Below are positions 2,662 to 22,435 of a stretch of DNA of 36,715 bases, piece after piece. Origin of the DNA: an uncultured Candidatus Saccharibacteria bacterium (GTDB lineage: Bacteria; Patescibacteriota; Minisyncoccia; Phycocordibacterales; GWA1-40-21); contig CAYQFQ010000005.1 of the NCBI GenBank assembly GCA_964416925.1, positions 1-36,715 of the forward strand, given 5' to 3'. The position numbers and the translations under genes are program-made. Each line of letters begins with the position of its first letter. Position 1 is the first letter of the stretch. The notes beneath the pieces were generated by a model that worked only from the letters and a program-made list of their open reading frames with translations, was not told the origin of the DNA and made no database searches.

Positions 2662-2681
2662 ATTTGCTGAATAATAACCAT

Positions 2682-5499: not shown

Positions 5500-6611
5500 T
5501 TAGTTTTGAGGGAATCGATAATATTTTGGAATCAAATGGTTTGAATCCTGTTTCCCAAAGAGAGATGCCACTCTATTCACTTTCGTGTACATTTTTCGGT
5601 TATACAAAATTACTAAAAGAAATATTAGGCTATTCTTATGATGTCGTTGCGGCTATTGGGGGAGAAGGAAAATTCCATTCTTTATTTAACGAATCACAAA
5701 TATCACAAGAGACCGGAAAATATGTTGATAGACACTACGTGTCACTTAATAAGCTAGTTATTGAACCGGCGGAAAATATTTTTAATAATTGTCTTGTTGA
5801 GTTTGCTGAGATTGATGGCAAGGATGTTGAACCAATAGATGGATTGAGAATTATTAACCGTGTTTATCCTCAATATATATCTTGTATGGCAATATATAAT
5901 TGTTTTTGGAGATATATTGGTAATGAATCTACAAAAGGTAAACTCACTGAACAAGATGTAAAAAATATTTCAGGGCTAAGAGATAGGACGGCCAAATTTT
6001 ATCCGAAAATTGAGAAGTTAATTAAAGATTATAGCGAACAACTTGGTACTAGAGAAAATTTTGATGGTGATTTGTTAAGATATTTTACTTACTCTGAAAT
6101 GACTAAATTTTTGGATGGGGAATTAAAGATTACGGAGGAAATTTTAAAAGAATTATTAAAGAGAAGAGAAAAATATTTTTATTTATATACAATAGATTCA
6201 CGGGAGGAATTAATTACAGATAAAACAGTTATTGAAAAGATTTATAATAAGTTCTACTTAGTTAAAGAGGAGGTAAAAGAAATTAAAGGTTTTTCTGCTT
6301 ACAAAGGCATTGTCAGAGGGGAGGTTTTTAATTTACAAAATCATAAAAAGGAGGAATCTCTGGGTCTATCAAAAGGTTGTATACTAGTAACTAGTATGAC
6401 CCATCCAGACGATGTTGCGATGATTAAAGATTGTGTCGCCATTGTTACGGATGAAGGGGGAATTTTGAGTCATGCAGCTATTGTTGCAAGAGAACTAAAG
6501 AAACCATGTATAATTGGTTCAAAGATTTCGACTCAATTACTTCGGGACGGAGATTTTGTTGAAGTTGACGCAAATTTAGGTATTATAAAGATAATTAAGA
6601 AAAATGAGTAA
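5496..6611 (+). CDS. PEP-utilizer swivel-domain protein, paralog 4 (short N-domain, LSH variant)
   Basis: The C-terminus is VTSMTHPDDVAMIKDCVAIVTDEGGILSHAAIVARELKKPCIIGSKIST..VDANLGIIKII. An ATGA overlap of 4 nt joins it to paralog 3. Confidence 0.88.
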   Translation: MISFEGIDNILESNGLNPVSQREMPLYSLSCTFFGYTKLLKEILGYSYDVVAAIGGEGKFHSLFNESQISQETGKYVDRHYVSLNKLVIEPAENIFNNCLVEFAEIDGKDVEPIDGLRIINRVYPQYISCMAIYNCFWRYIGNESTKGKLTEQDVKNISGLRDRTAKFYPKIEKLIKDYSEQLGTRENFDGDLLRYFTYSEMTKFLDGELKITEEILKELLKRREKYFYLYTIDSREELITDKTVIEKIYNKFYLVKEEVKEIKGFSAYKGIVRGEVFNLQNHKKEESLGLSKGCILVTSMTHPDDVAMIKDCVAIVTDEGGILSHAAIVARELKKPCIIGSKISTQLLRDGDFVEVDANLGIIKIIKKNE

Positions 6612-8043
6612 GATAATAGAACAATTTGCAAAATATAATAAGGGTAGGGAGATAACTAAACAGGAGGGAAATTTCTCTTTGTGTATTTGGGGTTCTTCTC
6701 CAATAGGGTGTTATCCTCCGTATTCTAATCTATATTACAGTCAAGATTTTGGTCATATCATTTTTTTAATGAAAGATGACTTTGGTGCGGGGTTCTTTAG
6801 TCTTGATGATTATAAAAAACCTACAAGAGAGACTTTTGAAAAATATTTACTTTTGGAGTCAGGACAACAACTTCTGGTGTTGAAAGATTTTTATCTGCTT
6901 CAAGAACAAGTCGATCTAATGTATAGAGAGATTGGACCGAGTGTGCTTTCCGAGATGGATACTGATTTACTCATTGAAAAGATAAAAATATTATTTAATC
7001 TTTGGTTCAGATTTGAAACAACAACCTTATTTTCAGAATCATTGGATGAAAAATTAGTTAAAGAATTATATTTTAATCTTAACGGTGATGAAAAAGAATT
7101 TGATACTTTCTTTCATAATAGCTCACTCTTAACTTTTAGATCTTTTGCTTCAAGGTATGATGAAGCACTACTGAAATTTAATAAAGATTCAATTTATGAT
7201 ATCCAGTGGATTCTTGGTAATTACTTAGCCACACCCAATTTAAAAGATTGTGCAAAGCAAATACAAAATCTAATTTCTGAAAGAGGTGGCACATCCGCTA
7301 TTCTTTTTGATATGGCCAAACTTGATGCACAAATAAATATTAATCAAAAAATTACGAGTGGTTATAAAACAAACCTAAATGACGAGCTCGCGAAGCTTTT
7401 TGAATTTGATCAGTTGTGTATGTATATAAGGGATATTAGAAAGGACCATCTTATGAAAGGAATTACAATCATTTCAAATTGTTTGCGAGAGTTGTTTCCA
7501 CGTTTAGGTTTGAAAGAGGAAGAAATAGTTTTTTTCTTTTATCCTGACCTTATAGATGGAAGTTTAAAATCTGATAATTATATTCATATTATTAATAAGC
7601 GAAAGAAAGGTTTTCTGGTGGATTTTGACAAAGAGGGTATCAAGACTGAGTATGGCGATGGGCAAGAACTCTTGAGTGAACTGTATGCAGTTATGGATAA
7701 TAGTTTTGCTGCTCACGAGAAAAATACTATTCACGGTAATATTGGATGTAAAGGAAAGGTACAAGCTGAAGTCTGTGTTGTTTTAGATAAAAAAGATTTT
7801 GATAAATTTAAAGATGGGGATGTTCTTGTCACAAGTATGACTCGTCCAGAATTTGTTCCTCTTATGAAGAAAGCGAGTGCGGTCATTACAGATGAGGGCG
7901 GAATAACATGTCACGCGGCAATAATAAGTAGAGAGCTTTGTATTCCTTGTATTATAGGGACCAGGAACGCCACTCGTTTACTTCATGATGGAGATTTGGT
8001 TGAGGTTGATGCGGAAAAAGGAATCGTGACAATTGTAAAGTAA
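6604..8043 (+). CDS. PEP-utilizer swivel-domain protein, paralog 5
   Basis: The C-terminus is VTSMTRPEFVPLMKKASAVITDEGGITCHAAIISRELCIPCIIGTRNATRLLHDGDLVEVDAEKGIV. It overlaps paralog 4 by 8 nt. Confidence 0.88.
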   Translation: MSKIIEQFAKYNKGREITKQEGNFSLCIWGSSPIGCYPPYSNLYYSQDFGHIIFLMKDDFGAGFFSLDDYKKPTRETFEKYLLLESGQQLLVLKDFYLLQEQVDLMYREIGPSVLSEMDTDLLIEKIKILFNLWFRFETTTLFSESLDEKLVKELYFNLNGDEKEFDTFFHNSSLLTFRSFASRYDEALLKFNKDSIYDIQWILGNYLATPNLKDCAKQIQNLISERGGTSAILFDMAKLDAQININQKITSGYKTNLNDELAKLFEFDQLCMYIRDIRKDHLMKGITIISNCLRELFPRLGLKEEEIVFFFYPDLIDGSLKSDNYIHIINKRKKGFLVDFDKEGIKTEYGDGQELLSELYAVMDNSFAAHEKNTIHGNIGCKGKVQAEVCVVLDKKDFDKFKDGDVLVTSMTRPEFVPLMKKASAVITDEGGITCHAAIISRELCIPCIIGTRNATRLLHDGDLVEVDAEKGIVTIVK

Positions 8044-8057
8044 TAATCTTTAATTTT

Positions 8058-9134
8058 ATGAATGAAAAATATGAAAAAAGCTTGGAACGAAAGAATTATC
8101 TTTTTACATTTGTGATTTCATTATGGTCTCATGGATTACTGCTCAAGAATAATCTCGGTGTCGGTTTTATGAAGTCCATTGTTACATACAAGGACGATAT
8201 GGGGATTTTATATCACAGCACAGAGGATATAAAAGAGGTAGAAAATGCACTATGGAAATTAGTTAAGAAGGGTGATCCTTTTTTAGATGCTTGGTACAAA
8301 AAAGCTATTGATTTAAATTCAAAATCTGATTTGTTAATTAGCACTAACAGTTTTACTACTGACGCTGAATCACTTGATGCGTTCATCGGTCATTTTAAGG
8401 AAACCTTTTTATATTCAACAGTTATTCCATATTGGGTACTTGCAGTTTTTAATAAACAAATTGAATTAGGACAGGATGTCTCTATCTATAGTGAGATAAT
8501 GAATAAGTTTGAAGAATTGAGAGGGCAGACACGATACCCTCAGCTTGTTTCTTCGGTTCTTGATAGATATTTTGATAAGGTATTTGAGATGACCAATATT
8601 GAAATTGCGCTACTAAGGTTACTTGCCCCAGAAGAACTGTTGAATTTTTTCTTAGGTAAGACAAAAATTGACGAAAAAGCTCTAAAGGAGAGACAAACAT
8701 GGTGTCTTTTAAAAAACGATTCAACTGATTTTGGTCTACTTTTTGATTACGATAAAGCAGGATTGTTTTCAACTTTAATTCCTAAAAGCGAAGATATTAA
8801 TGATGTTAAATCACTTAAAGGAAGTATTGCTTTTCGTGGTTACACTAAAGGTACTGTGAAAATTATTAATACCTTGAGTGATATAGAAAAGTTTAACGAT
8901 GGCGATATTCTTGTTTCAATAAATACAAATCCATCATTGATGCCTGCGATTATAAAATGCTCAGGAATAATAACTGATGAGGGTGGAGTAATGTGCCATG
9001 CTTCCATTATTGCTCGAGAATTGAAGAAGCCATGTATTATCGGTACAAAAAATGCCACTCGTGTACTTCACGATGGTGACTTAGTTGAGGTAGATGCCGA
9101 AAAGGGGATAGTAAGAATAATTAAACAGGAATAA
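8058..9134 (+). CDS. PEP-utilizer swivel-domain protein, paralog 6 (short N-domain)
   Basis: The C-terminus is VSINTNPSLMPAIIKCSGIITDEGGVMCHASIIARELKKPCIIGTKNATRVLHDGDLVEVDAEKGIV. It is the last gene of the co-directional run. Confidence 0.85.
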   Translation: MNEKYEKSLERKNYLFTFVISLWSHGLLLKNNLGVGFMKSIVTYKDDMGILYHSTEDIKEVENALWKLVKKGDPFLDAWYKKAIDLNSKSDLLISTNSFTTDAESLDAFIGHFKETFLYSTVIPYWVLAVFNKQIELGQDVSIYSEIMNKFEELRGQTRYPQLVSSVLDRYFDKVFEMTNIEIALLRLLAPEELLNFFLGKTKIDEKALKERQTWCLLKNDSTDFGLLFDYDKAGLFSTLIPKSEDINDVKSLKGSIAFRGYTKGTVKIINTLSDIEKFNDGDILVSINTNPSLMPAIIKCSGIITDEGGVMCHASIIARELKKPCIIGTKNATRVLHDGDLVEVDAEKGIVRIIKQE

Positions 9135-9241: not shown

Positions 9242-9787
9242 TTACAGGACCTGGGCCGTGGCGTGGCCGTCATCATCGATCTGCACCCGGACGATGTCGC
9301 ATTCCTTGAGGTTGGTGTCCAGCATCAGGTTCCGAACCTGTTCGTCTGTGAACATCTCGTGGACGAGGCAGTTGATGAGGACGGCGTGGGCGACGACGAG
9401 TGTGTTCGGCGCGTCGCTTTTGATTGCGGCGCCCGCGACCTGACCGAAGCGGTGAAGCGTTTCCGCGTCCCCGTGCTTGTAGTAGTCCCGTAAGCTCGCG
9501 TAACCGAGCTGCTTGAACATCGCGTTACAAACCGCCCGGCCCTCGGCGTCGGGGAGCTCGAACAGCTCCGGAACCTGGACGATATCCAACTCGTCCCCCA
9601 ACATGTTCGTGGCCGTCTGCACCGTCCTCTGTGCGGACGAGCAGAATACCGCGCCGAACGTGATCCCCTTGAGCTTGAAGCCGGCATTCATTGCCTGCTC
9701 GCGACCCAGATCCGTCAGAACGCGGTTGGCGTCGATCGGATCCTTGGTCGTGTTCCCGTGCCGTACGAAGTACATTTCCTTCTTCAT
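9242..9787 (-). CDS. Histidine phosphatase superfamily protein (PGAM/SixA-like), G+C-rich foreign-looking gene
   Basis: Motifs MYFVRHGNT (RHG), CSSAQRTVQTA and VVAHAVLINCL are present. I chose ATG 9787, which is preceded by GAGGAG 8 nt upstream. Third codon positions are strongly G/C-rich, and nt 9241-9300 is 39/60 G+C by hand count. Confidence 0.8.
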   Translation of the reverse strand: MKKEMYFVRHGNTTKDPIDANRVLTDLGREQAMNAGFKLKGITFGAVFCSSAQRTVQTATNMLGDELDIVQVPELFELPDAEGRAVCNAMFKQLGYASLRDYYKHGDAETLHRFGQVAGAAIKSDAPNTLVVAHAVLINCLVHEMFTDEQVRNLMLDTNLKECDIVRVQIDDDGHATAQVL

Positions 9788-9843
9788 CGCGTACTCTCCT
9801 CTTTCTCTTCTTTCGAAGTTGTAACTCCGCCTATTCTCAAACA

Positions 9844-9902
9844 TTATGAGATAAGCATACTGAAAACGAATGTGATTCGCGCTCAATATGCTTATCTCAT
9901 AA
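9844..9902. repeat. Perfect 16-bp inverted repeat with 27-nt spacer in the divergent intergenic region
   Basis: TTATGAGATAAGCATA (9844-9859) is the exact reverse complement of TATGCTTATCTCATAA (9887-9902). It lies 57-115 nt upstream of the 9787 start. Confidence 0.9.
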
Positions 9903-10089
9903 ATGACTATATTATTGGCCCTAGAATCAAAGTACTGTATCTAACTAGTAGTAGTATAGCAAATTATAGACTATTTGTCAATGGGTAAACATTGTTTATA
10001 ATAATATGCCTAATTATATAGATATATTGATTATGGATTGATGGCTTAAGATTGTTTCAATATATTCATATTTTTGTTATGCTTTTGAT

Positions 10090-10479
10090 ATGAAAACTCA
10101 TGCCTTTAGATTATGCAGAGGTCAGGACTTAAGAAAAGAAATAGAATTATTTGCTACGAACAAAGAGATTACTGCTGGTCTGATTTTAACTTGTGTAGGA
10201 AATCTGGAAAAAGTCACAATAAGAATGTCGGATGGTAAAACGATAAAAGACTTTACCGGATCTTTTGAAATTGTTTCTTTGGTTGGTACATTAGAAAAAA
10301 ATAATTCGCATTTACATATTTCTTTCTCTGACTTAGAAGGAAAAGTATTTGGTGGACATTTAAAGATTGGGTCTATTGTTGGAACAACAGCAGAGATTGT
10401 CATGGGTGAACTTGAAGACAGTACTTTTTCTAGAAAGCTTGATCCGCAGACTGGGTATGATGAATTATTTGTTGAATAA
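10090..10479 (+). CDS. PPC (DUF296) domain protein
   Basis: 129 aa. The pattern AGLILTCVGNLEKVTIR..FEIVSLVGTL..HLHISFSD.EGKVFGGHL..GSIV.TTAEIVMGEL is typical of the PPC/DUF296 fold. Confidence 0.7.
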   Translation: MKTHAFRLCRGQDLRKEIELFATNKEITAGLILTCVGNLEKVTIRMSDGKTIKDFTGSFEIVSLVGTLEKNNSHLHISFSDLEGKVFGGHLKIGSIVGTTAEIVMGELEDSTFSRKLDPQTGYDELFVE

Positions 10480-10629
10480 ATTTTATTTGAAACAAAGTAA
10501 AATTGTGGTTTTTGTTTTTTTTGTAACAAAAGAATTGGATTAAATATTTCTTTGTTGATATAATAATATTATTACTAGAATAATTAATTGATCTCAAACC
10601 AAAATATTTTTGGTCAGACAAATAAAATT

Positions 10630-10689
10630 ATGGCAAAAGGTAACAATAGACAGCAGAAGAATAAGAAGAAACCAAAGAAAGCAAAATAG
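10630..10689 (+). CDS. Candidate 19-aa highly basic micro-ORF (MAKGNNRQQKNKKKPKKAK)
   Basis: ATG 10630 to TAG 10687-10689. A clean intrinsic terminator follows 13 nt later. There is no SD, but most backbone genes here also lack one. Confidence 0.3.
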   Translation: MAKGNNRQQKNKKKPKKAK

Positions 10690-10702
10690 TTTCTTTTAAA
10701 AA

Positions 10703-10725
10703 ATCACCCAACAGGGTGGTTTTTT
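10703..10725 (+). terminator. Rho-independent terminator
   Basis: Hairpin AUCACCC-aaca-GGGUGGU followed by TTTTT. Confidence 0.7.
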
Positions 10726-10792
10726 AATACATTGACAAATTGATTTCCGTCTGGCATTCTTAATATAGATTTTTCAAACAAAAGGAGCTTAG

Positions 10793-11359
10793 GTGAAAAA
10801 CAAGTATGAGACCATGAGTGTAGTGATCGGTGCGTGCGTTTATCTGTACATTATTATTTCGACGATTCTGCAGACGGGCGAAGGTTTTTCTTTTGCAACA
10901 TATGCGTTGTGGTCCGCTCTCGCGTGGATTACTGGTTACACAACCATGAAGAAGAAAGGGCCTTTCGGAGTCCCGATGATGTATGGGGTGGGTGCCACAT
11001 CTATGGCGGCGATTCTTCTTTTTAAAGGGCGTTTTTCATGGAACATGATGGACACCATAGTTGCAATTCTAGTATTCGTTTGTTTGTTTCTTCTGGTTAC
11101 TAGTGGAACCAGATGTGCGCTAGTCATGTCCGTTATTGGGGCAGTAATAGCAAGTGTTCCTTTTACGATAATGACTTGGGAAAACCCAGAAGCAAGTCCG
11201 ATAATCGCCAATGCAGGCTTTTTGGTATCTAACTTCCTGCTTCTACTTTCTGCTGGTAAACCGAGGGAGTGGACGATTGAGAACAGTTTATACGGAGGAG
11301 TAAACACTATTTCCTGCGGTTCACTTGTTCTTCCGTGGTTGCTGAATCTTGTTAAATGA
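10793..11359 (+). CDS. Multi-pass membrane protein, function unknown (moderately G+C-rich)
   Basis: GTG start preceded by AAAAGGAG. There are about 6 hydrophobic segments (VVIGACVYLYIIISTIL, YALWSALAWITGY, GVGATSMAAILLF, IVAILVFVCLFLLV, VMSVIGAVIASVPF, GFLVSNFLLLLSA). It has its own terminator. Confidence 0.65.
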   Translation: MKNKYETMSVVIGACVYLYIIISTILQTGEGFSFATYALWSALAWITGYTTMKKKGPFGVPMMYGVGATSMAAILLFKGRFSWNMMDTIVAILVFVCLFLLVTSGTRCALVMSVIGAVIASVPFTIMTWENPEASPIIANAGFLVSNFLLLLSAGKPREWTIENSLYGGVNTISCGSLVLPWLLNLVK

Positions 11360-11369
11360 GTTTTTTAAG

Positions 11370-11409
11370 GGGGTCGCTGTGTGCATTGCACCAGCGACCC
11401 CTTTCTGTT
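11370..11409 (+). terminator. Rho-independent terminator
   Basis: A 10-bp stem pairs GGGGTCGCTG (11370-11379) with CAGCGACCCC (11392-11401), followed by TTTCTGTT. Confidence 0.7.
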
Positions 11410-11455
11410 ATCTTATTGATTTTAAAATACGTTACTTTTTGTTATAGTTAGTTAT

Positions 11456-12007
11456 ATGAAGACTGAAATAGAAACACGATTTCTAGAAATTAATAAAGAA
11501 GATTTGATATCAAAACTTCAAGCACTAAAGGCTGTTAATATGGGAGAAGTTAAACTTGATGAAATCATTTTTTACGATAAAGATCTCAAGTGTCTTGAAA
11601 ATAATAGTTTTGTTCGTCTTAGAAAGAAGAACGATAAAATAGTACTAACTTACAAGAAAAACAAAGCACAAGGAATTGACACAGCAAGAGAAATTGAATT
11701 TGAAGTTTCGGATATGGATGAAGCGAAGCAATTTATAGAAGTCATGGGGTTGATTGCCTATAGGGTTGTGGAAAAATATAGGCATACATTCGAGATTGAC
11801 GGTGTAACGCTCGATATAGATACCTGGCCAAAAATACCAGTGTATGTTGAGTTTGAAAGTGATTCGATTGAAAAAATGAAATCAGTTGCAAATAAGCTTG
11901 GATTAGTTTGGGAAGATAGATTTGATGGTGATGCGAAATATGTTTTTAAACATTACGGTTTTGATTTTGATAATATTAGAACGGTTACTTTTGATAAATT
12001 TGAATAA
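11456..12007 (+). CDS. CYTH-domain protein (CyaB-type class IV adenylyl cyclase / triphosphate tunnel metalloenzyme)
   Basis: The N-terminal EIETRFL fits the ExExK-type motif. VRLRK, LTYK and PVYVEFES are strands typical of CYTH. 183 aa. Confidence 0.7.
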   Translation: MKTEIETRFLEINKEDLISKLQALKAVNMGEVKLDEIIFYDKDLKCLENNSFVRLRKKNDKIVLTYKKNKAQGIDTAREIEFEVSDMDEAKQFIEVMGLIAYRVVEKYRHTFEIDGVTLDIDTWPKIPVYVEFESDSIEKMKSVANKLGLVWEDRFDGDAKYVFKHYGFDFDNIRTVTFDKFE

Positions 12008-12008
12008 T

Positions 12009-12518
12009 ATGGAAACACCAAAGTTTGAAGCTGAACGCATAGAAAATTTGATAAAAACGTCAGATATTGCAATCGATCAAAAGAGCGGGTTAGCCATTGT
12101 GGTTATAAAGCCAGATGCTTTTTTAAAACGTGATTTGATAATAAAGAAGCTTGAGAATTCTGGTTTGTATGTTGTTAAAAAAGTGGAAAAAAGATTGCCA
12201 GATAATTTTGTTGTTGGTTCATTGTATAAAGATTTACCTAAAAGTATCGAAGATAAAACTCTTGAACATTTTAATATTGGGCCTTCTGAAATTGTTTTAC
12301 TTGAAGGTGGTGTAGACTTACTCGATAAAATAACGGCTTTAACAGGTGAAAAGACAAATCCTGCAGAGTGTGACGAATCTAGTATTAGATATTTATTTGG
12401 TGAGCATTTTGGGAGAGAGACTGAGGATGGAAAAACCTATTTTAGAAATGCTGTTCATAGGGGAAAAGATACAAAAGAAAGGGAGGAAGATTTAGATAAG
12501 TTTGAGTCGTTTTTTTGA
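12009..12518 (+). CDS. Divergent nucleoside diphosphate kinase-like protein
   Basis: LAIVVIKPDAF resembles NDK IIKPD, GPSEIVLLEGG resembles GPVVAMVLEG, LTGEKTNP resembles GATNP, and RNAVHRGKD sits at the position of the NDK phosphohistidine motif N..HGSD. ATG 12009 lies 1 nt after the CYTH stop, so I rejected the 11922 start. Confidence 0.65.
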   Translation: METPKFEAERIENLIKTSDIAIDQKSGLAIVVIKPDAFLKRDLIIKKLENSGLYVVKKVEKRLPDNFVVGSLYKDLPKSIEDKTLEHFNIGPSEIVLLEGGVDLLDKITALTGEKTNPAECDESSIRYLFGEHFGRETEDGKTYFRNAVHRGKDTKEREEDLDKFESFF

Positions 12519-12554
12519 TACAATAGAAGTTGTATATATGTTAGTATTAATACC

Positions 12555-13394
12555 ATGGAAAAACCAAATTTAGATAAAATAAATTTATCAGAGTCAATTG
12601 AAACTGGCAAGAATGTCACGATGTCTATTGATCTAATAAGACATCCTGAAAAAGATCCGGCAACAGGCAAATTAACACAAGCCGGCAAGGATGCTTTTTT
12701 TAAACAGTTGAGTGAAGATTTTATTGATAGGGGTGACTACGATTTAATTAAATTTTATGTCAGTCCACTATCACGTGGACAGGAAGCAAAAGAATCAATT
12801 GGTAGATTTATGGAAGCGTCTGGTGTTAATACAAGTATAAGAAATAGAAAGGAGTTGGTTGGGAGATTTTTAGAAGTTGGGCCTAATTTTAAGAAAGAAA
12901 TGACTGCTATTCTTGAACGCAATGAACTTATAACTAAAGAACAGGCAGACACAGCAAGAGAAAAGGATCAAACTATTCCGGCATACGAACCTGCAAATAA
13001 GGACTTTGAAACTAAATCTAACGAATTACTCATAAGGGATTATTTTGAAGAAAATCTCCCAAGCGCTTCTTTTTCAGGTAGAGAACATGCAGAAGCCTTA
13101 AAGGAACTTATTGATCATTTTTCAAGGTTGTCTTCTAGACTTAAGTCTGGTAGTAAAGTTAAACTTGTTTTAGTTGGTCACAGTGGGGTGATCGAATATC
13201 TAACTAAATATGTTTATCTTCAGAATCATCCTGAAATTAAGGCTGGGGATGTTTCTGTTGATGATATTGGGGGTCTAGTTGATTTCTCTAAGGGTCCAGA
13301 AATATTAATTAAGTCAGACGAGGGAGGAGAGCAAAAAATTAGATTTAAATTTAAAGATCTTGATTTGGATTATACCCTAGAAGATACAAAATAG
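12555..13394 (+). CDS. Histidine phosphatase superfamily protein
   Basis: Contains IDLIRHPEKD (RH motif), VSPLSRGQEAKES (SPLxRxxQT-like) and LVLVGHSGVIEYL (second catalytic His). Confidence 0.7.
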   Translation: MEKPNLDKINLSESIETGKNVTMSIDLIRHPEKDPATGKLTQAGKDAFFKQLSEDFIDRGDYDLIKFYVSPLSRGQEAKESIGRFMEASGVNTSIRNRKELVGRFLEVGPNFKKEMTAILERNELITKEQADTAREKDQTIPAYEPANKDFETKSNELLIRDYFEENLPSASFSGREHAEALKELIDHFSRLSSRLKSGSKVKLVLVGHSGVIEYLTKYVYLQNHPEIKAGDVSVDDIGGLVDFSKGPEILIKSDEGGEQKIRFKFKDLDLDYTLEDTK

Positions 13395-13405
13395 TAAAAA
13401 TATTG

Positions 13406-14503
13406 ATGAATATTGATCAAATAAATAAAAATAGATATCAAAGAGCTTTTTTCTTCAAAAAGCTCGGTTATCTTATGACTTGTTTTGTTCATTTTCATTA
13501 CAGGAAAAGGAATTTTTTGTGGATATACAGAGATGAAATGATGGGGTCATATATAGAAAATTCTGCAGCAGAAAAAGCTTCAAAAATTGGATTTGATATA
13601 TTTTCAAATGAATCAAATTTTGCTTTGTTTGAAAAAGGTTTTCGTCAGATAATCGTAGATTCTGAGATATATATAAAAAAGACAAAGGCTCTTAATTCTA
13701 TTACTGTTGGTGATCTTTACGATCTCCGAGGTATGATCTGTAGGATGTATTATTATTTTGAGAAAACCGAGTTCTTTTTTACGGATGGATGCTATAAGAA
13801 AGAGATGGGTCCTGTACTAAAAAAGAATTTGTTTATTCTTGGCGACGACCTAAAAATGAAAAGCCGACCATTGATAGTGGAACTTTTAACAACGATGGTT
13901 TATCATTTGGCAGATATAGTCGCAAAGTCCCACAATTTAGATTTAGAAGATGTAAAATTTTACAGTTTTGATGAATTGGTTGCTTTGCTAGAATCAGGTA
14001 TTAGAGTTAGTCAGGATGTGATTATTTATCGCCAGAAATCTTTTGTACTTTATTCTGAGGACGAAAATGTTATTGAAATTCAAGGAAAAGAAAAAGAAAA
14101 TATTTTGGAAAGATTTAAAGAAGACGATCATACCCAGAAGACAGAGTTTAAAGGAACAATAGCAAATAAAGGACATGTTATTGCAAAAGTTCGGGTAATT
14201 TTGGCTGAACTTGATCAAGACTACAATCTTTTTATAAAAAAATTGCATTCAATGGAGATGGAACCTGGTGATATTTTAGTTACCGAAACAACTTCGCCGG
14301 ATTTTGTGCCACTTATGAAGAAGGCCGGAGGTATAATTGCAAATCAGGGAGGTCTTAATTCTCACGCGGCAATAATATCTAGAGAACTTGGTGTTCCGTG
14401 TTTGGTTGGAACATATCATGCTACTGATATTTTGAAGACAGGTGATTTGGTTGAACTTGACGCTAATAATGGTATTGTTAGGATAGTTGAAAAAAGTAAA
14501 TAA
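13406..14503 (+). CDS. PEP-utilizer swivel-domain protein, paralog 7 (detached copy, ANQGG/NSH variant)
   Basis: The C-terminus is VTETTSPDFVPLMKKAGGIIANQGGLNSHAAIISRELGVPCLVGTYHAT..LDANNGIVRIV. The pre-swivel helix DLEDVKFYSFDELVALL is present. I chose ATG 13406; TTG 13403 is the alternative. Confidence 0.85.
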   Translation: MNIDQINKNRYQRAFFFKKLGYLMTCFVHFHYRKRNFLWIYRDEMMGSYIENSAAEKASKIGFDIFSNESNFALFEKGFRQIIVDSEIYIKKTKALNSITVGDLYDLRGMICRMYYYFEKTEFFFTDGCYKKEMGPVLKKNLFILGDDLKMKSRPLIVELLTTMVYHLADIVAKSHNLDLEDVKFYSFDELVALLESGIRVSQDVIIYRQKSFVLYSEDENVIEIQGKEKENILERFKEDDHTQKTEFKGTIANKGHVIAKVRVILAELDQDYNLFIKKLHSMEMEPGDILVTETTSPDFVPLMKKAGGIIANQGGLNSHAAIISRELGVPCLVGTYHATDILKTGDLVELDANNGIVRIVEKSK

Positions 14504-14547
14504 CGTTTTGTTGGTTTTATTTATTAGAATTAAAAGTAATTATAAAA

Positions 14548-16602
14548 ATGTCTAACGAAAATCCTTGGGGTAATTTCACACCAGCAATAGAAGATGAAGA
14601 AGCACTAAAGGCGCTTCAAGAAATTGCTGAAAATCCTCAAAAGGGTGAACAACCTGTAATTGATAGTTCCACAACTCAGGAAAATCCTTGGGGAAATTTT
14701 ACACCAGCACCTGAAGACGACATATCACTGCCAGTAGCACAAAGTCAGGAAGTTGAGGGGGCTGTAGTTGATAGTCCGACAGAAGGTTTAGAAGAAGATG
14801 GTATCCACGTAAAACCGTTAGTATTAAAACCTGAGACTGATTTTCTTGCGGATATTGTTGCTCCGACTGCGATTTCTCAAGATCAAAAATTGAATGAGAC
14901 TGAACCAAATGATGAGACAGGGGCGGATTCACTTAATTCTGTTAATACGGAAGAAAGTGTAATTGAAAATTCAGCACCTATTTTAACTGATGGAGAAGAT
15001 GTTCCCGGAGAGCTAGTTGCACAAAGTCCGGAAGTGATAGAACCTGAAATCGTAAAGCCAAAAAGCACTTCGATGGCAGATCTTGTAGCTCAAGCAGTAT
15101 TTTCGCCAGATAAAAAACTGGACCTGCCCGTGGTGGAGGATGAAACCGGAGCCGATTCACTAATGTCAGATGTATTACCTAATAAAGCACCGGAGGGACC
15201 AGAAGAACCGCTGTCTGTAGAAGTTTTGCCTCCTGCACCAGAAGTTCATCCTGTTGTCCTAACTGAAAAACCAGTAGATTATGATTTAAATCCAGAAGGA
15301 GAGTCTGAACTTACGTTTGTTCCTGGGGAAAGGATTGTAATCCCAGTGGAAGTTTTGAATGGAGAAAATAAAAGTCTTTTTAGTAAACTTTCAGAGTCTG
15401 CAAAAAATATTTTCAGCAAAGCTTACGAAAGTACAGTGAGAGCTACGGGCGCTGATATTGCAATGGACAAAATGCAGATTGCTTTTAATCAGTCATGGGC
15501 TGATAAGAGTGAAAAGCAGGCAATAGAACTAAAGGGTCAAATCGATGATTTGGATATTAAGAGTGGTGCCATAGAGACAGCAAAAAAAGCGCTAGAGGAA
15601 GTAATAGAAGATATGAAAGCTAATAACTCTCCAGGTGTAGAAAAATATCTATTAAAGGTTAGGGATTTAGACAATGAAAGAGACGCAATATTAAATAAAA
15701 GAGATATTGTACAAACAAAACTTGAGGCAAGAGACGCTAAGACTAAGTTGTTCATAAACGAAAGAGACAGGATTGCTGACAAGGTAATTGATCGTTACAG
15801 CGAAATTCTTAAACCTATGGAAGCGGAGCTAGAAAACCTTCAAGGATTAAGAGATAAATTGGAATATGATACTGCTGTAGTTGAAGTCAAAAATGATGAA
15901 CAATTAGAAAGATATAAAAGTCTCGAACAGCAGAAGAAATTAGTTGAGGGTTCTTTGAAGTTGTTGAATAAGTCAGATAGGGAAATTAAAAAATATGTTG
16001 CTGGAATAGATGACGAGCTTTCAGAAATCGCTTCAAATGTGAAGAAAGAGAAGGAAGATTTAGCTAGAAGGGGTGATGAGATCAACAAAAAAATTGCCGC
16101 AGCTGATGAAAAGGCAAATCCATATAGAGATAAGAAAGAACAGTTTGTACGCATAAAGAGCGGTAGGCCGATACTTATAAATATGAAGACAAGGGAGAAA
16201 GGGCCTGAATTTACTGGCAGTGAGGAAGTGAGTTCTACGTCTAGAGAAGAATCTGAGGCGGTTGAAGCTGGTGCTGAGGCTGTTGATGAATCTAGCAAAG
16301 AAACTACAACTACAGAGAAAATTCCAACGGTAGAAAAAAGTAAAGAAAGACAAAAAATATCTGAATTTATTTCAACTTGGAATGCATACCTTCAGGAAAA
16401 AGGAATAAAAAGTGACTCTCCTGAAATTCTAAATCAAAAAGAATTTCTGAAGATATCAAAAATGGTACCTAGCCAAGAAATGGCATTCAAGAATTTTAAG
16501 ACCATTATTGAGAAATATTATAAGCTAAGAAAGATTCAGGTTGATAAGTTTACTGCAAAAATTACTGGTTTTTACGAAAGTAAAATTAAAGCTAAAAAAT
16601 AA
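14548..16602 (+). CDS. Large acidic, Pro-rich repeat plus coiled-coil protein (cassette copy A), function unknown
   Basis: 684 aa. The N-terminal third has low complexity with an internal repeat ENPWGNFTPA (14557-14586 and 14680-14709) and ETGADSL twice. The C-terminal ~400 aa is clearly homologous to the C-terminus of 17032-19566. Confidence 0.8.
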   Translation: MSNENPWGNFTPAIEDEEALKALQEIAENPQKGEQPVIDSSTTQENPWGNFTPAPEDDISLPVAQSQEVEGAVVDSPTEGLEEDGIHVKPLVLKPETDFLADIVAPTAISQDQKLNETEPNDETGADSLNSVNTEESVIENSAPILTDGEDVPGELVAQSPEVIEPEIVKPKSTSMADLVAQAVFSPDKKLDLPVVEDETGADSLMSDVLPNKAPEGPEEPLSVEVLPPAPEVHPVVLTEKPVDYDLNPEGESELTFVPGERIVIPVEVLNGENKSLFSKLSESAKNIFSKAYESTVRATGADIAMDKMQIAFNQSWADKSEKQAIELKGQIDDLDIKSGAIETAKKALEEVIEDMKANNSPGVEKYLLKVRDLDNERDAILNKRDIVQTKLEARDAKTKLFINERDRIADKVIDRYSEILKPMEAELENLQGLRDKLEYDTAVVEVKNDEQLERYKSLEQQKKLVEGSLKLLNKSDREIKKYVAGIDDELSEIASNVKKEKEDLARRGDEINKKIAAADEKANPYRDKKEQFVRIKSGRPILINMKTREKGPEFTGSEEVSSTSREESEAVEAGAEAVDESSKETTTTEKIPTVEKSKERQKISEFISTWNAYLQEKGIKSDSPEILNQKEFLKISKMVPSQEMAFKNFKTIIEKYYKLRKIQVDKFTAKITGFYESKIKAKK

Positions 16603-16619
16603 TCTTTAATTTAAAATAT

Positions 16620-16889
16620 ATGGATAATACAAATATTAACTCAAAAACAGCGGACACAGAACTTTTGGAGAGAGAACTTGATGGTTTACTGGCGAGTGCA
16701 AAGAAATTAAGATACGAAATCGATTTCTCAAATAAGCAATCTCGAGAGAATGTTGAACAGATTAGCATCGATGTAGACAATTCTATCAACAAAATTCAAA
16801 AATTGTGTGGAGACTTGGATTTAGTTGAAAAAACAGCTGGAGATGAGCTGGATGCTCTGGTTTTAAAGCAAGTTGAGGATGTGGCTTAA
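16620..16889 (+). CDS. 89-aa helical partner protein (cassette copy A)
   Basis: It is a paralog of 19585-19854 (same 89-aa length, GDELDALVLKQVEDVA vs GDEFDAIVLKQVEEVA) and occupies the same position after the large gene. Confidence 0.75.
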   Translation: MDNTNINSKTADTELLERELDGLLASAKKLRYEIDFSNKQSRENVEQISIDVDNSINKIQKLCGDLDLVEKTAGDELDALVLKQVEDVA

Positions 16890-16921
16890 CATCAAGATTT
16901 TTATAAGGTCTGTATATTACT

Positions 16922-16947
16922 AAAAGCCTCTTAAAAGAGGCTTTTTG
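16922..16947 (+). terminator. Rho-independent terminator
   Basis: Hairpin AGCCTCT-taaa-AGAGGCT followed by TTTTT. Confidence 0.75.
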
Positions 16948-17031
16948 TGTTGTTAAAGATTATGGCTATGTGATATTATATATGGAGCTAATTTATTTAT
17001 AAGCTTTATTAATTTCTAAGATAAAAATAAA

Positions 17032-19566
17032 ATGTCTAACGAATCACACCCAGGTAATAATGAATCACCAGAATTTCAGACTGGTGCAGGTCCTATTTCA
17101 GGAGAAAATCCTTCGTCTCAATTTGAAAATGGAGAAGGAGGTTCCGCATATGCAAAATTGCAAAGAGCAATAAGAATAATGAAAGATAAAATGACTGGAA
17201 GAACTGAAGAATCAAATTCACCGGTAACTCCCCCCGTGAGACAAATTTTTCATCAAGAATCAAGAATTCCCGACGCGCCTTTAACACAAAGACCTCCTGT
17301 CAGACAGATCTTTGGTTCTGAACCAAGAATGCCTCAGACTCCTCCATCACATGAATCTAGTGAAAAAAAGGAACATGCTAAAATTGTTTTAAGGTTCTCT
17401 CGTCACGATGAAAAAGGTAAGGGTGCTGATGACACTGAAGTTAGATTGACTGAACAAGGAAGACTCCATGCCGCAGGACTTTCTCGAGATGGTGTTGATT
17501 TGACAAATACTGTCGCTTTTGGTTCGCCAAGAAAAAGAACACAAGAAACAGCTGGCTTGATAATGGCTGGTGGACAAGAAGGTGTCTTGGGTACAGAGTC
17601 TCTTGAAGATCTAAAAAATATTGTAAATAAAGACATTGGGTTTGGTTCAAAAATTACTCAAGATAAGAGACTAGACTTTATTATGCCTCCAAAGGGTCCA
17701 TATCTTGATGAGATGATGGTTGCTTTTAAGGAAGGAAGACTTCTTAAATATCTCGTCGAAGAAAGTGATGCAAAGGCAAAGCAAATGGGTGGTGGAAGAG
17801 ATTTAATGTCATATAGTAGCCAGGCTTCCAAGATTGCTGAAATCGTTGCAAAATACTTAAAGATTATGCCTCGTTGGGAGAAGATCGTGAATGATGATGA
17901 AAAAGATGTGGCTCCAGTAATGGAAAGAATTTTAGCTTCTCACCAGTCTGTTACAGAATCATTTTTAGCAAAGGTTATTGAAATGACAAAGGGAGTTGAT
18001 GAAAGAGACGCTTTTGTCGAATCTTTGGGAGACCAAGGGTTTGGTTTTGCTGAAGGTTTTAAGATCGAAATTGAAAAGGACGATAAAGGTGAAGACCAGC
18101 TTAGAATCTCTTTCAAGAAAGAGAAAGATGGTGAAGTAATTTTTGATTTTGATGAGGTAGTTTCAAAGAAACTAATAAAGAGGATGATAATGCCACCTGG
18201 TCCAAAAGTTCCTTATGCTGCGAAAGAAAAGAAAGCCGATAAACCAAAAGCTGAAAAACCCGCAGAATCAGCTCCTAAAAAAGAAGCTGTAAAACAGCTA
18301 GAGCCTTCGGAGAAAGTTCCTGCTGGGGCATTAAGTTCAGAAAATGAGCGTCTCTTTAGAAAGTTAGCGGAGCCTAAAAAGGGTTTTTTCCGTAAGCTTT
18401 ACGATAGCGCTCTCAGATTCACCGGAGCTGATGTCTATTTTGCAAAAATGGAAGCAGCTCATCAGCAATCACTCGCTGATATGAACGAAAAGAAAGCTGT
18501 GGGCTTCAAAGAGGAGATGAGCAGAATTGATTTAAAAAACGAGGCTCTAGATACAGCAAAGAAAGAATTGGAATCTGCTATTTCGGCTCTGAAGGATAGT
18601 AATTCCCCTGGTGTAGAGAATTTACTTCTAAAAGTAAGAGAGATAGATATTAAAAAAGCTGAATTGATGAATGAAAGAGATATCGCTCAAACTCAATTTG
18701 AGGCTTTTGATGCAAAGAAAAAACTTTTCATTAATGAGAGAGATAAGGTTGCGGATAAATTAATTGGTAGCTATAACGAATTTCTAGCTCCAATGGAGGG
18801 TGATCTTGAAAAATTGCAGACACTTAAGGATCAGCTTGATTTAGACGTATTCACTACCGGAGTAAGACATGAAGAAAAATTGACACAGCTAAATGCCCTT
18901 GAGAAGAGAAAAAGTACTGTCGAAGCAGCATTGAAACTTGCAGGAGATGCAGATGATGAAATCAAAAAAACAACTCAAGTTTTAGAAGATATGTTACAAC
19001 AGGGACTGGCAGAAATTAAAAAAGAAAAGGAAGAGCTTGCTAAGAGGAAAATTGAAATAGATAAAAAAGTTGCAGCTGTTGATGAATTGGCAAATCCTTA
19101 TAGAGATAGGAGAGAACAGTTTGTTCGTATTAAAGCCGGAAGACCTATAGAGATGAATGTAAAGGCCAGAAAGGAGACTCCTGTGTTTAGTGGTAGTGAG
19201 ATAGTTACTCCTGGTACTAGGATAGAAGGCACAGGAAACGTAGAAGTAAAAAAAGAATCTAAAATTGAAGCTAAGAATTCTACACCCGAGACGGGCGAGA
19301 AAGACCCAGAGAGAAGAAAGATTTCTGATTTTATAACTGAATGGAATGCTTTCATCATTAAAAAAGGTACAGCTAAAGATTCCGTTGAAGTTATTAACGC
19401 CAAGGATTTATTGTCAGTTTCAAAAATGTCTGCAAATTTAGTAATGAACTTTGATAACTTTAAAGCAATTCTTGAGAAATACTATAAATTTAAGAAAATA
19501 CCAGTTGAAAAGTTTTCTGACAAAGTTTCTAGTTTCTATTTTAACAAGATCAAGGTTAAAAATTAA
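17032..19566 (+). CDS. Histidine-phosphatase domain fused to coiled-coil protein (cassette copy B)
   Basis: 844 aa. The N-terminus has a Pro-rich tandem repeat, PPVRQIFHQESRIP / PPVRQIFGSEPRMP. It is followed by VLRFSRHDEKGKG, AFGSPRKRTQETA and ILASHQSV (histidine phosphatase motifs). The C-terminal half is homologous to 14548-16602 (NSPGVE..LLKVR, KLFINERD, ANPYRD..EQFVRIK.GRP, EKYYK). Confidence 0.8.
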   Translation: MSNESHPGNNESPEFQTGAGPISGENPSSQFENGEGGSAYAKLQRAIRIMKDKMTGRTEESNSPVTPPVRQIFHQESRIPDAPLTQRPPVRQIFGSEPRMPQTPPSHESSEKKEHAKIVLRFSRHDEKGKGADDTEVRLTEQGRLHAAGLSRDGVDLTNTVAFGSPRKRTQETAGLIMAGGQEGVLGTESLEDLKNIVNKDIGFGSKITQDKRLDFIMPPKGPYLDEMMVAFKEGRLLKYLVEESDAKAKQMGGGRDLMSYSSQASKIAEIVAKYLKIMPRWEKIVNDDEKDVAPVMERILASHQSVTESFLAKVIEMTKGVDERDAFVESLGDQGFGFAEGFKIEIEKDDKGEDQLRISFKKEKDGEVIFDFDEVVSKKLIKRMIMPPGPKVPYAAKEKKADKPKAEKPAESAPKKEAVKQLEPSEKVPAGALSSENERLFRKLAEPKKGFFRKLYDSALRFTGADVYFAKMEAAHQQSLADMNEKKAVGFKEEMSRIDLKNEALDTAKKELESAISALKDSNSPGVENLLLKVREIDIKKAELMNERDIAQTQFEAFDAKKKLFINERDKVADKLIGSYNEFLAPMEGDLEKLQTLKDQLDLDVFTTGVRHEEKLTQLNALEKRKSTVEAALKLAGDADDEIKKTTQVLEDMLQQGLAEIKKEKEELAKRKIEIDKKVAAVDELANPYRDRREQFVRIKAGRPIEMNVKARKETPVFSGSEIVTPGTRIEGTGNVEVKKESKIEAKNSTPETGEKDPERRKISDFITEWNAFIIKKGTAKDSVEVINAKDLLSVSKMSANLVMNFDNFKAILEKYYKFKKIPVEKFSDKVSSFYFNKIKVKN

Positions 19567-19584
19567 TTCTAAAATAATAAAACT

Positions 19585-19854
19585 ATGAACGACAATAAAA
19601 ACGATTCAAGTGTGTCTAATATAGAAAACCTCAAAGTAGAACTAGCAAACCTTCTTGCAGAAGCGAAAAAAATAAATTTTGAAATTGAAGTCATAAACAA
19701 GCAATCTAGAAACGACATACAAGAACTTGATTCTAAAATAGAGACCACAGTGAAGTCGATAGAGAGACTTGTCTCTAAAATAAATTATGTTGAAAAAGAA
19801 GCTGGTGATGAGTTTGATGCTATTGTTTTAAAACAAGTCGAAGAAGTAGCGTAA
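19585..19854 (+). CDS. 89-aa helical partner protein (cassette copy B)
   Basis: Paralog of 16620-16889. It starts 18 nt after the large gene. Confidence 0.75.
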   Translation: MNDNKNDSSVSNIENLKVELANLLAEAKKINFEIEVINKQSRNDIQELDSKIETTVKSIERLVSKINYVEKEAGDEFDAIVLKQVEEVA

Positions 19855-21259: not shown

Positions 21260-22435
21260 ATGCATAAACCGAGGTTGAAATTGTTGGTTGGAAGTTGGCA
21301 TCTACTGAAGCAGATCATGGGGTTCGGCAATCCCACGGCGGGCGGTTTTACCACAATGGCGGAAGCGCTCTGGGCGGTGGGAAAACTGAGCAAGGAACTC
21401 AAGTCGAGATTCGACATTGAGCTTGCTGTTTCGGCTCACTGGTGGCACGAACTTATCGTGCAAAGTGATGACCGTGACTTCGGCTATAGCGCCAAGTGGA
21501 ACAATCCGCGCGCTATCGATATCGATCAGTGGGCTGAAGGTGTTCTTTGTGGACACTATCCGCGCATTGGCAGAATCATTCCCCCTGGGTTTGGCCTGCC
21601 GGGAAGCGACGATGGCGCGTTCATCAATCCTGATCCGGAAAGGAAGAAGCTTGCTCGTGACATGATGGTTCACAGCTTTTTGACTTCTGATCGAGTGGTC
21701 TCGGAAGGCGTCGGTGAAGGCAATGTCATTTACTGGACAGGTCCCGATGGCATCCGTTGGAATCGCGTCGTTGGTGGTGACAATGTTCTCTTGGGACATG
21801 ATCTCAATCCGAATCTCCAGGAATGGAAGCTCATCGTTTCTGGTCTTTGTTCCGCTTTGGAAGAATCGAAGAAGCGGGGTCTGCTTGAGAATTCGAAATT
21901 ACTCATTGAAGGAAAGCCAGCTGGTGATCCCTGTTATCTCGATGTCTTTACGGACACCACCCTTGAGATAGAGGTAATCAACCGGATCAATGGGTATTTC
22001 GGTACCAAGCTTGCATGGTGGCAAGGGGAACTTTGTCACAGTCGTGGAAGTGGTCAGACATTCCACAGCGCGATGAATCAAGCGATCGACGCGGATGTTT
22101 TCGATGGTCAGATTCACCTGAATTCGGGAGGTCTCGGCGCAGTAAACTTCACCAAGATGCTCTCAATGCCTGGTGGTACGCCAATCGGCGCTTTTCCACA
22201 ATATGTGGACCCTGACTATCTTCCTGGTGAAGGTCTTCCTGAATGGGTTGAAGACCAGATCCTCACGATACGTCGTGGCGCTCTGTGGTCAGCCCAGACC
22301 GGCCTGCCGTTTGAGGTCGAGTTCGACGCTCGCTTCTGTCGGTATGCCGATACGGTCGGTAAGCTCCAGTGGTCGGCTGAATGGGTGATCGCCCTCTTCA
22401 ATGAGGAAGTGAAACGGCTCGAAAAGAGCAAATAA
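21260..22435 (+). CDS. Xylose isomerase-like TIM-barrel protein (divergent sugar isomerase family), G+C-rich island
   Basis: VIYWTGPDGIRW resembles XylA F/WGGREG, LLIEGKPAGDP resembles IEPKPxEP, GELCHSRGSGQTFHSA resembles ANHATLAGHTF, and QIHLNSGG resembles the DxN metal site. Nt 21421-21480 is 31/60 G+C by hand count. Confidence 0.55.
   Translation: MHKPRLKLLVGSWHLLKQIMGFGNPTAGGFTTMAEALWAVGKLSKELKSRFDIELAVSAHWWHELIVQSDDRDFGYSAKWNNPRAIDIDQWAEGVLCGHYPRIGRIIPPGFGLPGSDDGAFINPDPERKKLARDMMVHSFLTSDRVVSEGVGEGNVIYWTGPDGIRWNRVVGGDNVLLGHDLNPNLQEWKLIVSGLCSALEESKKRGLLENSKLLIEGKPAGDPCYLDVFTDTTLEIEVINRINGYFGTKLAWWQGELCHSRGSGQTFHSAMNQAIDADVFDGQIHLNSGGLGAVNFTKMLSMPGGTPIGAFPQYVDPDYLPGEGLPEWVEDQILTIRRGALWSAQTGLPFEVEFDARFCRYADTVGKLQWSAEWVIALFNEEVKRLEKSK

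Follow-up and report, generated by a model that had tools for sequence, protein, structure and literature searches.

How is an array of phosphohistidine swivel proteins charged, and how is it reset, when it lies next to several genes for phosphoryl-transfer proteins? A contig of an uncultured Candidatus Saccharibacteria bacterium (CAYQFQ010000005.1) raises this question. The whole contig of 36,715 nucleotides (36.7 kb), hereafter the window, was analysed; its 5' end falls within the first of seven swivel genes. It is AT-rich (GC content about 0.33-0.36), carries almost every gene on the + strand, and its genes have homologues in metagenome-assembled genomes of Patescibacteria (Paceibacterota, Moraniibacteriota, Falkowbacteria and Azambacteria). 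A first-pass annotation had proposed that three histidine phosphatase genes, an NDK-like gene, a CYTH gene and the seventh swivel gene encode the donor, carrier and eraser of one histidine-phosphate transfer system, with NDK as a donor in trans in place of a missing ATP-grasp domain. All six genes are present (Table 1) with the catalytic motifs in their translations, and four of them, CYTH, NDK, a divergent phosphatase that we call HP_A1 and swivel 7, follow one another on the + strand, separated by 1, 36 and 8 bp. The best explanation of the locus as a whole, to which we give a probability of about 0.55, is nevertheless a composite: an operon of dikinases resembling rifampin phosphotransferase (RPH) with histidine phosphatase (HP) partners, a CYTH-NDK block, and a foreign phosphatase.

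The swivel proteins have a recognizable ancestry. All seven window paralogues end in a PF00391 domain (78-89 bits) with a T/S/C-H-A motif; their N-terminal domains have no Pfam match, yet all seven are mutually homologous. A profile of 60 such modules aligns to residues 447-866 of RPH (5fbs/5hv1), that is, to the RIF-binding domain and the swivel, with an E-value of 2e-37, and swivel 7 alone aligns to residues 699-866 of 5fbs. Against the N-termini of RPH and phosphoenolpyruvate (PEP) synthase, the stand-alone PPDK_N proteins reach 278-320 bits (278 bits for RPH). A census of open reading frames (ORFs) across the related loci (numbered L001 onwards) counted 122 with a swivel only and 21 stand-alone PPDK_N, and in 24 loci a single chain of about 660-840 amino acids (aa), with the full RPH architecture of PPDK_N, middle domain and swivel, is followed by an HP gene. 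The swivel proteins are thus predicted to be the substrate-binding and phospho-His half of split RPH-like dikinases. Throughout the module family the Thr-x-His motif is nearly invariant. Eight giant ORFs carry one PPDK_N followed by two to four modules, and the seven that are complete or nearly so reach 1,150-2,100 aa (L009:3602-9907, L036:3999-9302, L056:1-4995, L071:3608-7978, L084:8934-12815, L090:2-4927 and L093:418-3864). We rejected the possibility that they are artefacts, the seven having been checked and found free of stops, N or X; in effect, they appear to be multi-carrier dikinase polyproteins. M20 peptidase genes are likewise found within or next to swivel arrays, both in the window (1297-2661) and at two other loci (L090:5084-5473, L088:10495-11088).

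Two of the three phosphatases belong to families of their own. HP_A1 gave neither a Pfam match at E<=0.01 nor a direct PDB match when searched by sequence alone, and only three of its 45 homologues have a precomputed PF00300 match. An alignment of 26 members shows invariant R29-H30 (in RHPEK), R74 (in SPLxRGQE) and H209 (in GHSG). The AlphaFold model (279 aa) has a predicted local distance difference test score (pLDDT) of 89 and a predicted template-modelling score of 0.86, and its top Foldseek matches are all members of the histidine phosphatase superfamily (PGAM, RosC, GpgP, PGAM5, MINPP), with probability 1.0, E-values of 1e-6 to 5e-5 and target-normalised template-modelling scores of 0.45-0.60. 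HP_A1 hence stays below the Pfam gathering cut-off and is placed in the superfamily by fold and catalytic residues. HP_A2, the N-terminal half of the protein encoded at 17032-19566, scores 19.9 bits against His_Phos_1 as part of the full protein and 21.7 bits, which equals the cut-off, as an excised domain. The family to which it belongs has at least 177 stand-alone members of about 290 aa, is widespread in Patescibacteria and is encoded after swivel genes; 37 of 40 sampled homologues match PF00300 at E<=1e-3, and R24, H25, R67, R69 and H204 are invariant. Its model (pLDDT 92) again has only histidine phosphatase superfamily members as top fold matches. A profile comparison of HP_A1 with HP_A2 (hhalign, E 4.7e-5 over 221 columns) spans a common helical insert and a C-terminal beta-hairpin. 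The two are sister subfamilies, divergent and sharing an RHxEK motif. Neither matches the sixA model (TIGR00249), so they are not assigned to SixA, and the clustering with metabolic PGAM or cobC types that would have severed them from the array was not seen: they form their own subfamilies, with swivel and PPDK_N genes as neighbours at almost all loci.

Conservation of these neighbourhoods across related genomes, which the first-pass annotation had left to be checked, was examined for both subfamilies. For HP_A1, contigs carrying homologues were fetched and one genome per species was scanned; for HP_A2, a metagenome scan added 80 loci, and after local annotation with hidden Markov models and dereplication at 90% identity, 63 loci were retained. 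HP_A1 adjoins a swivel gene in 11/11 informative non-redundant loci (the adjacency is seen in the window, L001, L002/L003, L004, L007-L011, L013, L105 and L106). Orthologues of swivel 7, with 42-63% identity in the N-domain, are the adjoining gene in L002/L003, L007 and L011, and in L105 HP_A1 is directly followed by a swivel gene of equal length (365 aa). In 41 of the 51 non-redundant loci with at least 400 bp of upstream sequence, the start of HP_A2 lies no more than 350 bp, and mostly 8-50 bp, beyond the end of a swivel domain; where at least 4 kb is available, 22 of 23 loci carry swivel genes. The number of swivel domains per HP_A2 locus ranges from 1 to 10: in L021 at least seven swivel genes precede HP_A2, and in L023/L024 the order is PPDK_N, two swivel genes, HP_A2. 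The linkage of HP_A1 and HP_A2 to swivel genes is real and conserved across Patescibacteria, a conclusion that we hold with high confidence.

That ordinary metabolic phosphatases of the PGAM/CobC type lie near the array by chance, with no functional coupling, has a nearly negligible probability. It could be argued from the third phosphatase gene, 9242-9787, which has weak, generic NCBIfam matches only and looks horizontally acquired; for HP_A1 and HP_A2 it is already refuted, because their adjacency to a swivel gene, with a spacer of 8-50 bp, is repeated at dozens of non-redundant loci. Assuming that about 1% of all genes encode swivel proteins, a chance count of 41 out of 51 would be astronomically improbable, and it is the recurrence in dozens of independent loci that places the association beyond chance. 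The proposed link of the phosphatases to the array thus holds for two of the three, and stays suggestive for the third.

Further features of these neighbourhoods were recorded. In L105 and L106, which hold the two closest relatives of HP_A1, a canonical RHG phosphatase of 248 aa (L105:861-1607, L106:2936-3682) is encoded directly upstream of, and on the same strand as, a swivel gene of 484 aa, and the two genes stay together despite shuffled gene order. MurJ, LepA, a DivIC-like gene and glutaredoxin lie upstream of an HP_A1 cluster in one genome (L005) and of PPDK_N-swivel-HP_A2 clusters in others (L023, L024); this common context suggests that HP_A1 and HP_A2 hold equivalent positions.

Who, then, supplies the phosphate? 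The system as such does not lack an ATP-grasp component: PPDK_N, as a gene or as a domain, lies in the same cluster in 8/11 HP_A1 loci, and in 19/23 HP_A2 loci with at least 4 kb upstream. The usual donor would accordingly be, as judged from gene content and homology, the PPDK_N ATP-grasp protein of the same operon and not NDK. No PPDK_N gene was found within the 36.7-kb window. As PPDK_N is normally the first gene of the cluster, and the ORF of swivel 1 is open from position 3, this absence is most simply explained by the contig edge, and the PPDK_N gene may lie off the 5' end of the contig.

The alternative put forward at first, in which NDK autophosphorylates and donates to the swivels in trans, CYTH feeds the chain and three phosphatases erase the mark, drew on the close spacing of the four consecutive genes, on the putative catalytic His retained by NDK and on the lack of an ATP-grasp gene in the window. 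Both enzymes are what they were taken for. CYTH scores 59.4 bits against a Pfam cut-off of 23.2, its best PDB match being the triphosphate tunnel metalloenzyme 7ns8 (E 1e-7), and falls below the CyaB equivalog cut-off (48 vs 58). NDK scores 33.9 bits (Pfam cut-off 27) and is divergent, with 29.6 against an NCBIfam equivalog cut-off of 155; a direct PDB sequence search gave no match for it, and its family profile matches PDB NDKs at E of about 1e-7, with invariant N147 and H150 (RNAxHR) at the site of the catalytic NxxH motif. This NDK family, however, always has a 183-aa CYTH gene 1-24 bp upstream, and the pair recurs in four other genomic contexts (L014-L020 and L107-L109, in Paceibacterota-type genomes) in which no swivel, HP_A1 or HP_A2 gene was seen nearby; the control loci hold no swivel domain in 36.7 kb. 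There, NDK has about 170 aa including an N-terminal extension of about 25 aa, and the neighbours include nucleotide-phosphate enzymes (NUDIX, NT5C, HAD, HIT and PPK2). Conversely, the roughly 95 swivel/HP loci contain no homologue of NDK or CYTH, and the closest relatives of HP_A1 (73% and 68% identity) carry PPDK_N, another phosphatase and swivel genes upstream, where the window has CYTH-NDK. Since, in addition, the contig starts inside swivel 1, where PPDK_N usually lies, we consider NDK extremely unlikely as the donor, and CYTH likewise drops out of the swivel system.

The window is better described as a juxtaposition of two separately conserved modules, because CYTH-NDK and swivel/HP each recur without the other. 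A homologue of the membrane protein encoded at 10793-11359 precedes CYTH-NDK in L014/L015, and these three genes form a separate conserved block between swivel 6 and HP_A1, probably concerned with nucleotide phosphates and lying outside the swivel/HP system. A local variant would have HP_A1, placed behind NDK in this organism only, dephosphorylate the phospho-His of NDK in the way that SixA dephosphorylates Ndk in E. coli (PMC12934123). The 36-bp gap between the two genes, with no convincing terminator in it, is compatible with this idea. Their adjacency is confined to this contig, though, the conserved partner of HP_A1 is a swivel gene and NDK neighbourhoods are devoid of HP_A1 and HP_A2, which makes it very unlikely.

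This leaves the dikinase operon, whose core would be an enzyme split into a PPDK_N ATP-grasp protein and one to ten modules, with dedicated HP proteins. Homology to RPH and HpeHI suggests that the ATP-grasp subunit, whose gene probably lies just beyond the 5' end of the contig, would load the conserved swivel His from ATP, yielding AMP and Pi, and that the swivel would hand the phosphate to a small molecule bound by the RPH-like N-domain. The HP protein would remove by hydrolysis a phosphoryl group from a part of the system that does not vary, most probably the phospho-His of the swivel, in a reset or proof-reading step. HP proteins from 30 non-redundant loci have a median pairwise identity of 48%, compared with 57% for the swivel domains and 24% for the neighbouring N-domains, and HP identity correlates with that of the swivel (rho 0.30) more than with that of the N-domain (rho 0.15). 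Around the roughly 95 clusters, a search for recurrent operon genes returned no pathway enzyme; the recurring neighbours, in at most nine loci each, are only recombinases, glutaredoxin, LepA/EF-G-type GTPases, MreB-like proteins and toxins. One HP for 1-10 modules, the tracking of swivel identity by HP and the lack of recurring pathway genes favour a target that is constant, for instance the phospho-His of the swivel. Our preference for reset over dephosphorylation of products is tentative, at somewhat less than even odds.

In the competing scheme, HP would dephosphorylate the small molecules phosphorylated by the modules, either in a cycle of phosphorylation and release, for example one that keeps scavenged metabolites in the cell, or at the end of a pathway with its middle enzymes encoded at other sites. 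Several observations weigh on that side, or otherwise against the composite reading. The structures nearest to both phosphatases are those of small-molecule phosphatases (GpgP, RosC, TIGAR, CobC, PGAM), SixA ranking only 38th among the structural neighbours of HP_A2, and the helical insert of about 100 aa in both HP_A1 and HP_A2 is typical of substrate-capped metabolite phosphatases. HP genes of two or three subtypes are present together in several operons (those of the window, L105, L009 and L010), and HP_A1 tends to co-occur with one swivel subtype; this hints at module-specific, not generic, partners. In acetovanillone catabolism, the Hpe pathway, a dikinase is paired with a co-encoded phosphatase that acts on a downstream product, although this enzyme, HpeD, is a HAD protein (PMC9618137). 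Two-component dikinases are active in vitro without a phosphatase, and the authors who described HpeHI suggested that such high-affinity dikinases scavenge substrates (PMC12167813). Moreover, the HP_A2 of the window does not lie beside a swivel gene but 2.5 kb downstream of one, in fusion with an unrelated domain; the linkage counts run from phosphatase to swivel, the loci having been gathered by searching with the phosphatases; and for this organism we infer the donor, no ATP-grasp gene lying within the window. Set against the product scheme are a single conserved HP, cap included, for up to ten modules whose binding domains are about 24% identical, the lack of recurring intermediate enzymes in the operons, and the futile cycle that a kinase and a phosphatase alone would create. 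We consider it possible but unlikely.

Reset of the swivel fits a wider hub-and-spoke arrangement, in which one ATP-grasp protein would charge up to ten carrier modules, some in a polyprotein of about 2,000 aa, each for a different small molecule, while RHxEK phosphatases would edit or reset the phospho- or pyrophospho-His carrier. In this complete form the proposal is doubtful.

The third phosphatase, 9242-9787, has a different character. It scores 59 bits against His_Phos_1 (cut-off 21.7), with FVRHG, SSAQRTVQTA and VVAHA in its translation, and belongs to branch 1 (PF00300) of the superfamily; its NCBIfam matches (cobC 30.8 bits, SixA 25.1 bits vs 74.5) are weak, generic and all far below cut-off. 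Its GC content is 0.60 and its GC content at third codon positions (GC3) 0.84, against a median GC3 of 0.26 for the genes of the contig, and the GC island coincides exactly with the coding sequence. From its composition the gene looks horizontally acquired. Homologues with 24-34% identity, some of them GC3 outliers, lie beside swivel clusters, on the strand opposite to them, in L040, L083, L084 and L089. We considered this type as a regular partner and left the idea as suggestive, as only these four other loci are flanked, at such low identity; 9242-9787 is a facultative or accidental neighbour, its link to the array being suggestive.

GC3 outliers on the opposite strand beside swivel clusters were noted more generally, with z-scores of 6.2 (9242-9787), 12 (L083:2715-3470) and 5.4 (L021:9336-9917, an ORF with no Pfam match); L040:5223-5786 is a further case. 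Either selection or horizontal acquisition on repeated occasions could account for them. A 28-nt inverted repeat (9844-9902), 86% complementary around a 3-nt loop, directly precedes the GC-rich phosphatase gene of the window, and strong divergent promoter-like sites lie at 9953-10002. An exact-sequence cluster look-up with 9242-9886, orf21260 and the 844-aa protein containing HP_A2 returned singletons of this contig only, and no clue to a donor of the GC-rich gene.

In the window, HP_A2 is fused to a C-terminal coiled-coil-rich domain of about 420 aa; the 17032-19566 protein is 46% identical over 465 aa to the 14548-16602 protein, and the 89-aa companions of the two (orf16620 and orf19585) are 45% identical. 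The segments 14548-16889 and 17032-19854 are a tandem duplication of a two-gene unit. The coiled-coil C-terminal family has 252 representatives, without a Pfam model, typically of 440-500 aa with variable N-terminal extensions. No HP domain was found in the best 150 of the 252, and the fusion is seen only in the window. In the 14548-16602 protein, the N-terminus is acidic and repetitive and contains NPWGNFTPA twice.

Table 1. Features of the window discussed in the text, with coordinates on the contig.
Feature	Coordinates	Strand	Evidence or remark
Swivel module 1: RPH-like substrate-binding N-domain and C-terminal phospho-His swivel (predicted)	9-1277	+	PF00391 85 bits; TCH motif; ORF open at contig 5' edge
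M20 peptidase, interrupting swivel genes 1-6	1297-2661
Swivel modules 2-6	2664-4073, 4066-5499, 5496-6611, 6604-8043, 8058-9134	+	PF00391 78-89 bits each; gaps -8 to +14 bp
Canonical RHG histidine phosphatase, convergent with swivel 6	9242-9787	-	His_Phos_1 59 bits
Membrane protein	10793-11359	+	First gene of block with CYTH and NDK
CYTH	11456-12007	+	PF01928 59.4 bits
NDK	12009-12518	+	PF00334 33.9 bits
HP_A1, divergent histidine-phosphatase-fold protein (RHPEK, SPLSRGQE, GHSG)	12555-13394	+	Fold, catalytic residues, linkage
Swivel module 7 (short class), partner of HP_A1	13403-14503, ATG at 13406	+	PF00391 89 bits
Tandem two-gene unit, copy 1: coiled-coil protein and 89-aa protein	14548-16602 and 16620-16889	+	Copy 2 at 17032-19854
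HP_A2 domain within the 844-aa ORF 17032-19566	17338-18192	+	Family, residues, fold, linkage
Coiled-coil-rich C-terminal domain fused to HP_A2	18292-19566	+	Paralogue of 15340-16602

Scans of the window as a whole added little to this picture. Those for tRNAs and Rfam families returned zero matches, as did the PADLOC defence models against all components, so that a known defence system is unsupported. Promoters and terminators (40 and 7, against 33.9 and 6.4 expected in shuffled sequence) were not above expectation and were not used for operon definition; one good hairpin lies at 16922-16945. Outside the region of interest, orf21260 (21260-22435; 391 aa) is a compositional outlier (GC 0.52) without Pfam or NCBIfam match, and an insertion-sequence-type rve transposase lies at 28741-29679 on the - strand. 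A histidine kinase (30641-31792; HisKA and HATPase_c) has an unusual sensor architecture with an N-terminal Bro-N/RhuM-like domain, whose usual home is in phage or virulence-associated proteins.

Two-component RPH homologues are established enzymes: HpeHI, CreHI and PpsAB (PMC12167813). The system described here shares with them a separate PPDK_N ATP-grasp subunit of about 310-360 aa, an RPH-type binding domain with a C-terminal His swivel, and a conserved catalytic GG-x-T-C/S-H-A-A-I motif. It differs in that one ATP-grasp protein accompanies 1-10 divergent modules, sometimes within polyproteins of 1,150-2,100 aa; in that the operon includes a dedicated protein of histidine phosphatase fold and no carboxylase, P450 or other pathway genes; and in its hosts, which are metabolically reduced Patescibacteria and not degraders of aromatic compounds. 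With RPH itself (5fbs, 5hv1) it has in common the three-domain logic, embodied by the single-chain versions of the 24 related loci, whereas the window proteins lack an ATP-grasp domain and have binding domains only about 20-27% identical to each other, so that rifampin is not implied as a substrate. To our knowledge, a phosphatase partner of RPH has never been reported, and a literature search found none.

Erasure of phospho-His by a member of the superfamily has a precedent in SixA, which removes the phosphate from NPr (PMC7948535) as well as from Ndk. SixA acts on a carrier charged by the swivel-domain enzyme EI-Ntr, which makes it a functional model for the reset of a swivel, and the RH...R...H catalytic core is common to both. 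SixA has about 160 aa and no cap, whereas HP_A1 and HP_A2 have 280-290 aa, with the helical insert, a C-terminal beta-hairpin extension and RHxEK instead of RHG. A dikinase with a dedicated, co-encoded protein is also known from PEP synthase and PPDK, where a regulatory protein (PSRP/PDRP, DUF299) acts on the Thr-x-His motif of the swivel, in which Thr is nearly invariant here as well. PSRP/PDRP has a DUF299 fold and is a bifunctional kinase/pyrophosphorylase; no DUF299 gene was seen in our loci. RPH, two-component RPH-like dikinases, SixA-type erasure and rph-like matches in genomes of the candidate phyla radiation, the latter reported as resistance-like genes (PMC8651080), are therefore already known. 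Our literature searches found no description of the pairing of dikinases with RHxEK phosphatases, of multi-module arrays or of polyproteins.

Split RPH-like dikinases have so far been known only from a few aromatic-catabolism pathways, and RPH-like matches in the candidate phyla radiation have been read simply as resistance genes. Across Patescibacteria we find instead expandable arrays of predicted dikinase modules with one kind of divergent histidine phosphatase partner, which give a testable handle on abundant 'hypothetical' genes of bacteria whose genomes are tiny. The proteins involved are soluble and of small size, and a simple assay of 32P transfer should give opposite outcomes under the reset and product models. 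If the swivel His is the target of the phosphatase, enzymatic erasure of phosphohistidine would extend to dikinases from signalling and phosphotransferase-system carriers; if the products are its target, the operons would carry out an ATP-driven capture and release of scavenged metabolites. Should the hub-and-spoke arrangement be true, its HP protein would be the first known case of a phosphohistidine phosphatase devoted to a dikinase, and the system may serve these host-dependent bacteria in detoxification or in the scavenging of metabolites.

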